Positions 19,168-19,932 of a stretch of DNA of 24,587 nucleotides are shown here, piece after piece. The stretch covers positions 1 to 24,587 of the IMG/VR virus record IMGVR_UViG_2724679236_000014. One strand, written 5' to 3'. Origin of the DNA: a virus (Duplodnaviria > Heunggongvirae > Uroviricota > Caudoviricetes). The notes below the pieces were generated by a model that was not told the DNA's origin, did not search any database, and saw only the letters and a program-made list of their open reading frames with translations. The position numbers and the translations under genes are program-made. The stretch's first letter is position 1; every line of letters begins with the position of its first letter.

Positions 19168-19707
19168 ATGGGCATAGTGCTTTATTCTGCTGACAGAAGA
19201 GGCAGATACAATGCAAATACATTAATGAATTTTTCTTCTATAGTGCCGCCTGTAACTGATAGCTACATTGTTGATGGTCCTATTGGGGCGAAGTTTGATT
19301 TCAAAATCGCTGAACATGGTTTACGATACCTGTTTCCGAGAAGAGACCTAACCAGCACTGATCTCATGGAGCTTATTGTTGAACTGGTTCGTCAGCTTCA
19401 GTTCCCAACAAAACCATCCAGATACCAGTCAATATTCGCCTGTGAAAAGATAGAGGATGCGAATTATTTTAGAGAAAATTATCGTGAACACGATGGGCCG
19501 CAACCTATTTATGAAATACTGGCAGGTGATAATACAAATATTCACCGTGGTGATATGAGACTTCTTGACATTGATTCATTAACAGATAACGCAGCAATAA
19601 TCTTCACAAAAGCAATCTGGTACTGGTCAGGCATCGCTTCTAACGAACCGTTCTGGGAGTATGTTGTCCCGCTTCCCGTACAGATCGGCAAGATGGTAAT
19701 GGAATAA
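19168..19707 (+). CDS. Hypothetical protein (179 aa) in the Q-S moron position, antisense to the late transcript
   Basis: Supplied ORF with AGGAG 7 nt upstream of the ATG; a TTGATA -35-like hexamer lies at 19118-19123; the region looks AT-rich by eye (not computed). No family recognised. Confidence 0.55.
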   Translation: MGIVLYSADRRGRYNANTLMNFSSIVPPVTDSYIVDGPIGAKFDFKIAEHGLRYLFPRRDLTSTDLMELIVELVRQLQFPTKPSRYQSIFACEKIEDANYFRENYREHDGPQPIYEILAGDNTNIHRGDMRLLDIDSLTDNAAIIFTKAIWYWSGIASNEPFWEYVVPLPVQIGKMVME

Positions 19708-19722
19708 TAAACAATTAACCTA

Positions 19723-19932
19723 TCAGGCGGGGGAGCAAGATATATTCACGCCTGATAGATAACTCTCAAGATGTACATATGGATCAAGATGGACCTCGTC
19801 TTTACTAAGCTGATCGATGACGATTCTCATCTTTTCAATCACTTCTTCTTTAGTTTCTCCAGAAGTAGAAAATGTAAATCGAATTCTAGCGGGTAAGGCA
19901 CATTGATGTGCTGCAATTTTAATCTCTTTCAT
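19723..19932 (-). CDS. Hypothetical small protein (69 aa), first ORF downstream of the tR'-like terminator
   Basis: GGAGG lies 7 nt upstream of the ATG at 19932; convergent with the 179-aa ORF; looks AT-rich by eye. Confidence 0.45.
   Translation of the reverse strand: MKEIKIAAHQCALPARIRFTFSTSGETKEEVIEKMRIVIDQLSKDEVHLDPYVHLESYLSGVNISCSPA

Follow-up and report, generated by a model that had tools for sequence, protein, structure and literature searches.

We report that two small convergent genes of a lambdoid prophage, one encoding a protein of 179 amino acids (aa) on the plus strand and the other a protein of 69 aa on the minus strand, combine a member of the DUF2441/BC2332-like family with a small protein that, judged by sequence comparison, is its cognate, co-evolving partner across a wide family, and that the pair moves between prophages as a unit. 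The genes lie in the viral record IMGVR_UViG_2724679236_000014, of which the 24,587 nucleotides (nt) analysed are referred to here as the window, and occupy the interval between the late antiterminator gene Q and the holin gene of the minus-strand late operon. The larger protein has the predicted fold of an ADP-ribosyltransferase (ART). Our preferred reading, to which we assign a probability of roughly 45%, is that it is an effector expressed in the lysogen, that a Q-gated inhibitor, the smaller protein, would silence it during the phage's own late phase, and that it would have an anti-phage role.

The arrangement of the pair is exactly as given in the original prediction: both open reading frames (ORFs) have good ribosome-binding sites (RBSs), and they converge across a gap of 15 nt (19708–19722). 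Both genes are under purifying selection, with a ratio of nonsynonymous to synonymous substitution rates (dN/dS, against Salmonella and other homologues) of 0.28 for the 179-aa gene and of 0.14–0.18, indicating strong selection, for the 69-aa gene. The claimed antisense orientation of the larger gene relative to late transcription also holds, as this is the sole substantial plus-strand gene in ~23 kb of minus-strand phage genes, the right-end integrase excepted. An 8.5-kb part of the window surrounding the pair (15168–23707) is identical to an assembly contig whose 179-aa protein is named as Escherichia albertii.

The 179-aa protein is a DUF2441/BC2332-like family member. It scores 28.8 bits for DUF2441 (PF10386), above the gathering threshold of 25 (E = 1.4e-6, residues 61–154), no other Pfam family matches it at E ≤1, and PF10386 is present in all of its database homologues. 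Among 1.84 billion cluster representatives there are 645 relatives at E ≤0.001, the best 150 of which are mostly ~170–190 aa long. A profile built from 108 relatives matches one solved structure, 2AUA (Bacillus cereus BC2332, 'hypothetical protein'; E = 2.5e-18), and a confident structure model of the window protein (pLDDT, the predicted local distance difference test, 92) adopts the same fold as 2AUA, with the split β-sheet core of ARTs; DarT, ParT, RES and MbcT-type toxins are among the structural neighbours of the model. The original prediction had stated that neither protein matches a recognised family and had proposed a remote-homology search. That search overturns the statement for the 179-aa protein, which belongs to DUF2441, resembles 2AUA and falls into the ART clan, and leaves it standing for the 69-aa protein, for which neither a Pfam match nor a fold match was found.

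Published classifications agree with this assignment. Pfam places DUF2441 in its ART clan (PMC7955679), SCOP lists a 'BC2332-like' family inside the ADP-ribosylation superfamily (PMC3000352), and ProFunc matched the active site of 2AUA to the catalytic site of diphtheria toxin (PMC3024214). The invariant family residues R75, R85, W153 and E164 are all kept in the window copy, as are the near-invariant residues H50, G51, E72, S84, F90, D129 and Y152. In the model, which was read without superposition on a known ART, R85 precedes strand 88–92, Y115 lies in strand 114–119 and the invariant E164 lies in strand 163–168. This is the order expected for the [H/R]-[Y/S]-[E/D/Q] triad on core strands 1, 2 and 5 of ARTs, and R85, Y115 and E164 are candidates for a catalytic triad. 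By its modelled fold the protein belongs to the ART superfamily, and it may be considered a putative enzyme that binds nicotinamide adenine dinucleotide (NAD) and transfers or hydrolyses ADP-ribose.

DUF2441 recurs as a reverse-oriented or integrase-proximal accessory gene in Streptococcus and Gordonia phages. In Gordonia phage Yeezy (gp32; locus L018) a distant DUF2441 gene sits between the tail genes and the integrase, at a locus with no member of the partner family. In Streptococcus phage Javan642 (Javan642_0015; locus L019) a distant DUF2441 gene is reverse-oriented within the early operon; its 3' end is overlapped by a convergent ORF of 59 aa, and no partner-family member was found at this locus. 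Both positions are typical of prophage-expressed genes. In Salmonella Typhimurium 14028S, the DUF2441 gene STM14_RS06850 is among those differentially expressed in an RNA-seq comparison (PMC9867438), so a member of the family is measurably transcribed in Salmonella.

An ART fold at this position also raises the thought of a lysogenic-conversion or virulence factor, that is, an ADP-ribosylating toxin or secreted effector acting on eukaryotic cells, which we consider far-fetched. Stx occupies the same Q-S position, where Q-dependent expression and lysis would release the toxin, and both hosts, E. albertii and Salmonella, are pathogenic. The ProFunc authors, too, speculated that BC2332 might be a toxin (PMC3024214). 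However, the 179-aa gene is antisense to the late transcript, so that Q read-through would suppress rather than express it; its sequence begins with no hydrophobic signal peptide; a single 179-aa domain has no space for receptor-binding or translocation functions; and relatives are found in Gordonia and Streptococcus, in insect symbionts and in environmental prophages. Orientation, the lack of a hydrophobic N-terminal signal and taxonomic spread were likewise the grounds on which a secreted toxin or type III secretion effector was rejected.

The case for a partnership rests on the loci of related enzymes. In a database of 5.8 billion clusters, all five clusters with homologues of the 69-aa protein (5/5) have them convergent to a DUF2441 gene. 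DUF2441 relatives were collected from 78 loci of viruses or prophages and from 13 loci in genomes, a 14-sequence alignment serving for the related-locus search. Every enzyme copy at least 71% identical to that of the window has a convergent 69-aa homologue detectable by BLAST, with a gap of 11–15 nt in all but one locus (L035), where the gap is 145 nt and the enzyme ORF is truncated. Enzyme copies of at most 47% identity have no 69-aa homologue that BLAST detects; a scan of ORFs showed that most of the distant DUF2441 copies also have a small convergent ORF, which abuts or overlaps the enzyme stop codon.

These divergent ORFs could be linked to the 69-aa family by profile comparison. A first direct hhalign comparison with the ORF of Klebsiella phage KP12 (OM835952.1; locus L017) was insignificant (1.3% probability), and the link surfaced only once the partner ORFs of many loci were merged into profiles. 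Group G2 then aligned with G3 at 96% probability (E = 1.8e-9), with G4 at 93% (E = 3.2e-7) and with G5 at 80% (E = 1.4e-5), and the group of the window, G1, aligned with the merged G2–G5 at 87.5% (E = 3.6e-6) over a strand and a helix (residues 17–50). A hidden Markov model (HMM) built from the merged family, run over all 7,334 ORFs of at least 35 aa that 114 loci contain, gave 80 matches, one per locus, all in DUF2441 loci and all on the convergent strand (80/80), with at least 12 of the loci absent from model building. Stop-to-stop distances of −107 to +20 nt, corresponding to abutting or overlapping genes, were found in 75/80 matches, and in many relatives the 3' ends of the two genes overlap by 10–107 nt. 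The identity matrices of enzyme and partner are correlated (r = 0.85 for 43 non-redundant pairs; Mantel 0/2000). This correlation, together with the strict pairing in the HMM search, indicates that the pair is a co-diverging two-gene module, whose convergent layout was kept while DUF2441 diverged to ~28% identity to the window copy.

The partner-family ORF of KP12 is unannotated, the deposited record having a gap at this point (locus positions 3362–3685, minus strand). It has a strong RBS, reads as 127 aa at its longest and as 107 aa from MTEPKQ, matches the HMM at E = 4e-31 and shares ~80 nt with the 3' end of the DUF2441 gene. A further small ORF family, G6 (phrog_6581), was rejected as a partner and not counted, as it shows no detectable relation to the partner family and is farther off (30–142 nt). 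It stands convergent downstream of DUF2441 in a clade by terminase genes (L013, L014, L067–L069, L071, L075 and L078), has the motif 'ITLTTQTGETFTG', and could be an analogous partner or a mere neighbouring phage gene. At four loci (L035, L079, L107 and L113) the partner ORF is intact and the DUF2441 ORF is either truncated (103–157 aa) or ~1.2 kb from the partner (L113), a pattern of decay expected for a costly enzyme that assembly errors could also produce.

The 69-aa protein itself matches phrog_11414 (E = 1.6e-27) and has no match in Pfam, NCBIfam or PADLOC. Its family profile gave only chance-level matches to PDB sequences, tblastn found no match in 50,697 phage records, and no helix-turn-helix (HTH) or other DNA-binding motif was detected in it. 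The partner family as a whole has no Pfam model and is covered only by PHROGs without assigned function; we found no description of it in the resources searched. A decidedly improbable alternative dispenses with a protein partnership and takes the small ORF to be the first gene of the late operon or a spacer, with convergent transcription interfering with the moron. The poor model and missing fold of the partner, and the coincidence of the terminator–partner junction with the recombination junction of the cassette, are in line with this. Against it, the small protein is under the strong purifying selection given above, accompanies DUF2441 into at least four different phage backgrounds, belongs to a family found only beside DUF2441 genes, co-diverges with DUF2441 and is retained even in modules whose orientation to the lysis genes is reversed.

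The pair is an insertion. The original prediction of an AT-rich accessory pair placed between Q and the holin is borne out by low GC content, 0.38–0.42 across 19100–20000 versus 0.47–0.55 in the flanks, and by E. coli prophages in which the site is empty. Of 5,426 complete E. coli genomes, 1,359 match the holin and/or Q flanks and none matches the middle, and a distant-mode search of the same genomes with the cassette alone gave no match. At the empty site of E. coli APEC-O117H42, homology ends at 19058 and restarts at 19937 with 230 unrelated bp between, and in another E. coli strain an ORF6N gene occupies the position of the cassette. The block common to the window and Salmonella prophages (19118–19972, 89% identity) stands there behind a different Q family (PF03589) and ahead of TerB-like and DNA methylase genes and other holins, and two more variants of the cassette lie behind Q proteins of the Pfam families PF06323 and PF06530. 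The element is thus present or absent at a fixed slot between otherwise homologous phages and has an atypical composition. Because the pair is missing from E. coli prophages whose Q and holin are the same and Salmonella prophages have it behind other Q types, the cassette is a portable moron, which moves as a unit among prophages with three Q families and different lysis genes. The empty sites, the differing cargo and the differing Q backgrounds show that the slot between the terminator tR' and the holin accepts varied cargo.

Other cargo in this slot includes a 757-aa reverse-oriented gene with a weak SET-domain match (L022, 1031–3304), a ParE toxin and HTH pair with an N6/N4 methylase (L016, 1394–3694), a TerB-like gene with DUF3927 (L007, 2290–2864) and an ORF6N gene (L021, 2023–2634), which confirms the Q-holin interval as a hotspot for cargo.

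The Q terminator of the original prediction was recovered as a tR'-like hairpin followed by a U tract. The hairpin folds at −18.1 kcal/mol (z = −3.0; 0/200 shuffles fold as well), and the terminator is also present at the empty site in E. coli and in the cassette of Salmonella prophages. The hairpin ends 17 nt before the start codon of the partner, and the U tract reaches to ~5 nt from the partner RBS, leaving no room for a separate partner promoter. Such a terminator lies 11–16 nt ahead of the partner start in 13/44 distinct partner upstream regions; the frequency in random 130-nt windows is 2.8%. All 13 belong to two lambdoid clades of the Q-holin slot, and their stem sequences differ and still pair. 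By visual reading, ~3 further partner upstream regions have a terminator with one stem mismatch.

Upstream of the enzyme, the sequence TGATAT[CT]GT occurs 44–51 nt ahead of the start codon in 19 distinct regions upstream of enzymes 28–100% identical to that of the window, one of which carries TAATATTGT in its place. It has the form of an extended −10 element (TGn followed by TATCGT or TATTGT) in which A2 and T6 are invariably present, and it forms the 5' edge of a 45-nt block (19118–19155) that is more conserved than the coding sequence. This conservation suggests that the motif is the promoter of the DUF2441 gene. A two-hexamer scan found no plus-strand sigma-70 promoter. Two other readings of the block were rejected: TTGATA as a −35 hexamer, since variants lack an acceptable −10 at 16–18 nt, and an RNA structure, since the fold is weak (−1.7 kcal/mol) and shows no covariation.

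A hairpin farther upstream (19084–19102) has no U tract on either strand; relatives (L022, L027, L085, L087, L089 and L094) keep a hairpin at this position, some with other arms, such as GCCGC...GCGGC in L087 and L089. At the other end of the enzyme gene, the 10-bp inverted repeat of the original prediction is real and was misplaced in part, having been put at about 19721–19769, with its right arm ~10 nt off. The repeat starts 13 nt past the 179-aa stop codon and takes in the stop codon of the 69-aa gene with the 12 codons before it. One as good arises in 4.3% of shuffles of the 1.1-kb interval, and the hairpin is moderately stable (z about −2). Its 8–10 bp core is kept in relatives, but this core falls in invariant codons; a 3' hairpin serving both transcripts is possible. 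A second minus-strand 'terminator' upstream of the holin (~19047–19075) is unsupported in the window (z = +0.78).

These signals bear on a toxin-antitoxin (addiction or stabilisation) module without a dedicated anti-phage role, in which the ART-fold protein would be a growth-arresting toxin, the small protein its antitoxin, and the convergent, sometimes overlapping 3' ends an added antisense control of the toxin:antitoxin ratio. Strict pairing and co-divergence of the two proteins, 3' ends that overlap in many relatives, and the toxin-like decay seen in truncated DUF2441 genes beside intact partners would all fit such a module. We nevertheless regard it as unlikely, as the genes are not co-transcribed, the partner has no DNA-binding motif for autoregulation, and the putative antitoxin of the window has no promoter of its own between terminator and RBS; its supply in the lysogen would therefore need read-through of the terminator, a poor design for a labile antitoxin.

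In the reading that we prefer, the DUF2441 enzyme is cytoplasmic and would be made in the lysogen, as its own conserved, putative extended −10-type promoter implies. During lysogeny the ART-like effector would act on, or be triggered by, a superinfecting phage and, by analogy with the DarT, RES and ParT toxins, would stop it through NAD-dependent modification of nucleic acid or protein, or through NAD consumption, with exclusion or abortive infection as the outcome. The partner, which starts directly past the U tract of tR', should for that reason be strongly expressed only when Q carries RNA polymerase through the terminator, and it would then inhibit the enzyme. Q-dependent transcription would also run antisense across the effector gene and silence it, and the two effects together would protect the phage's own late phase. 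Enzymatic activity, inhibition by the partner, the timing of expression and the anti-phage role are all predictions; a rise of the small gene and fall of the effector in the manner of Tha-Ith is predicted from the anatomy of the locus, with its partner behind tR' and its antisense effector.

Several observations weigh against this reading. The literature searched reports no function for DUF2441, and neither protein matches PADLOC-DB 2.0.0 (E ≤1) or NCBIfam. The AlphaFold2 model of the 69-aa protein, built from 6 sequences, is poor (strand-helix-strand, pLDDT 61), and Foldseek with this model returned nothing at E ≤0.001; with neither fold nor family to go by, binding or inhibition by the partner is purely inferred. 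The juxtaposition of terminator and partner could be a simple product of recombination at a conserved terminator. A constitutively active toxin would poison a lysogen that lacks the partner. In the KP12-like clades no terminator precedes the partner and DUF2441 is co-directional with the holin, so Q-gating is not universal in the family. In the window copy, moreover, the integrase lies 2.7 kb from Q and the early region is lacking, so that Q may never be expressed.

An ART-fold enzyme could also be turned against the host, ADP-ribosylating an immune or core component in counter-defence or host takeover, with the small protein as regulator or specificity factor. AcrF11 ADP-ribosylates Cas8f, and Alt and Mod of T4 ADP-ribosylate RNA polymerase. 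Such a role is improbable here, as the gene runs antisense to the late operon throughout its clade, the window included, and is outside the early region, and thus badly placed for expression during infection; the partner, furthermore, has no Aca-like HTH, and DUF2441 is also found alone in non-phage chromosomal contexts. The lysogen-expressed effector with its Q-gated inhibitor can be extended to the family, with DUF2441 and its convergent partner as an undescribed, widespread immune module of Enterobacterales prophages in which the ART effector guards the lysogen and an inhibitor wired to the Q terminator switches it off at resident lysis. This extension is tentative and open to doubt.

The features of the cassette and its surroundings are collected in Table 1. 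Beyond Q, the window contains YbcO-like and DUF1367 genes, a hok/gef toxin gene (22049–22204, minus strand), a Lar-like gene (22624–22854), DUF1187 and DUF1233 genes and a tyrosine integrase (23352–24587, plus strand). The early, immunity and replication region is apparently lacking from this prophage (20600–24587), and other E. albertii copies (L002, L003 and L006) continue instead into nin-region genes. The prophage may have suffered a deletion or be defective, or the region may be a junction with another element. Two minus-strand genes at 15584–17297, one with a ParB_N domain (259 aa) and the other a PF20691 'TAGT' gene (310–316 aa), stand between the lysis cassette and the small terminase; they form another accessory-looking pair, possibly linked to DNA modification.

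Table 1 Coordinates of the cassette, its signals and the neighbouring late genes in the window.
Feature	Position	Strand	Remarks
DUF2441 (BC2332-like) ART-fold protein, 179 aa	19168-19707	+	Antisense to late operon; RBS AGGAGAG at 19157-19163
Partner gene, 69 aa	19723-19932	-	First ORF past tR' in late-operon direction; RBS GGAGG at 19939-19943
tR'-like intrinsic terminator	19940-19979	-	Hairpin 19950-19979, then U tract UUUUGUUGUUU
Extended -10-like motif TGATATCGT	19119-19127	+	TGn + TATCGT; 49 nt upstream of DUF2441 start codon
Perfect 10-bp inverted repeat CTATCAGGCG/CGCCTGATAG	19720-19729/19749-19758		19-nt loop
Hairpin GCCAGAT-TAAGA-ATCTGGC	19084-19102		~17 nt upstream of promoter-like motif
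Insertion relative to E. coli prophages with same Q and holin	19059-19936		blastn junctions; empty-site sequence
Late antiterminator Q (DUF1133 / Q-like)	20060-20602	-	Context, outside cassette; Pfam DUF1133 E 1e-108; Phage_antitermQ E 2e-6; phrog_753 'anti-termination protein Q-like'
Candidate pR'-like sigma-70 promoter TTGGCT-18-TATATT	20096-20125	-	Within 3' end of Q; from consensus scan alone
Lambda-family holin	18590-18949	-	Context; first lysis gene downstream of cassette; Pfam Phage_holin_3_1 E 3e-27; phrog_126
Lysozyme	18110-18586	-	
Rz	17746-18126	-	

Structure and comparison provide solid evidence and place a long-orphaned ART family in a context that can be tested, its function being a prediction. 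A structure of DUF2441/BC2332 was available by 2005 and an ART active site had been predicted for it; the family is now tied to a partner family and to a reproducible wiring in prophages. Experiments have a concrete and inexpensive starting point here, as the genes are only two and small, the point mutants to make are clear, and naturally empty sites can serve as controls. Should the effector/inhibitor reading be true, it would add an ART-based system to prophage-encoded immunity, together with a simple way of avoiding autoimmunity in which the antidote is the first gene past the late terminator; should the pair be a plain toxin-antitoxin module, its convergent, abutting or overlapping genes would be a new architecture for ART-fold toxins.

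In comparison with known systems, the DUF2441/BC2332-like family (PF10386; 2AUA; SCOP d.166.1.6) has no known function, and neither a conserved convergent DUF2441–partner module nor a phage-borne enterobacterial DUF2441 clade with an obligatory convergent small partner was found described in the resources and literature searched. DarT-DarG, ParT-ParS, RES-Xre and MbcT-MbcA share with the pair a small ART-superfamily enzyme beside a cognate gene, which is neutralising in those systems, and DarTG is an abortive-infection defence. The window partner, in contrast, is not a macrodomain, Xre-HTH or ParS-like protein, and its gene converges on that of the enzyme instead of sharing an operon with it. 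No match to the DarT (PF14487), RES (PF08808) or ParT families or to PADLOC places the pair among DarTG, RES-Xre or ParST systems, and a type II toxin-antitoxin operon does not describe genes that converge in the window as they do in each of the 80 related loci. AcrF11 (PDB 6KYF), an anti-CRISPR ADP-ribosyltransferase, shows 9% identity over a partial alignment and differs in genomic placement, and the cassette has no associated Aca-type regulator.

The classical lambdoid Q-S morons are stx in Stx phages and nmpC in DLP12. The cassette resembles them in using the same tR'-holin slot, with variable cargo of atypical composition that related phages lack. Unlike stx, which is co-directional with the late transcript and Q-dependent, it has two convergent genes, the larger of which is antisense. 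The closest match in wiring is Tha-Ith of Staphylococcus aureus prophages, in which a small gene on the opposite strand encodes the inhibitor of a defence effector and expression alternates with the life cycle, averting autoimmunity (PMC11087260). The cassette likewise pairs a prophage gene, in our reading an effector, with a small adjoining opposite-strand gene, 15 nt away in the window and overlapping by up to 107 nt or separated by up to 20 nt in relatives. The proteins are not homologous, Tha being a HEPN RNase and the window effector ART-fold, and ith lies inside the cI operon with its own constitutive promoter, whereas the window partner stands behind a late terminator (PMC11087260); the hosts of Tha-Ith are Gram-positive, unlike that of the window prophage. 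Should the immune-module reading be true, the cassette would be a Gram-negative, ART-based counterpart of Tha-Ith and would give the BC2332-like ART family its first function. By analogy, the pair is most like an ART toxin with its neutraliser, wired in the manner of Tha-Ith.

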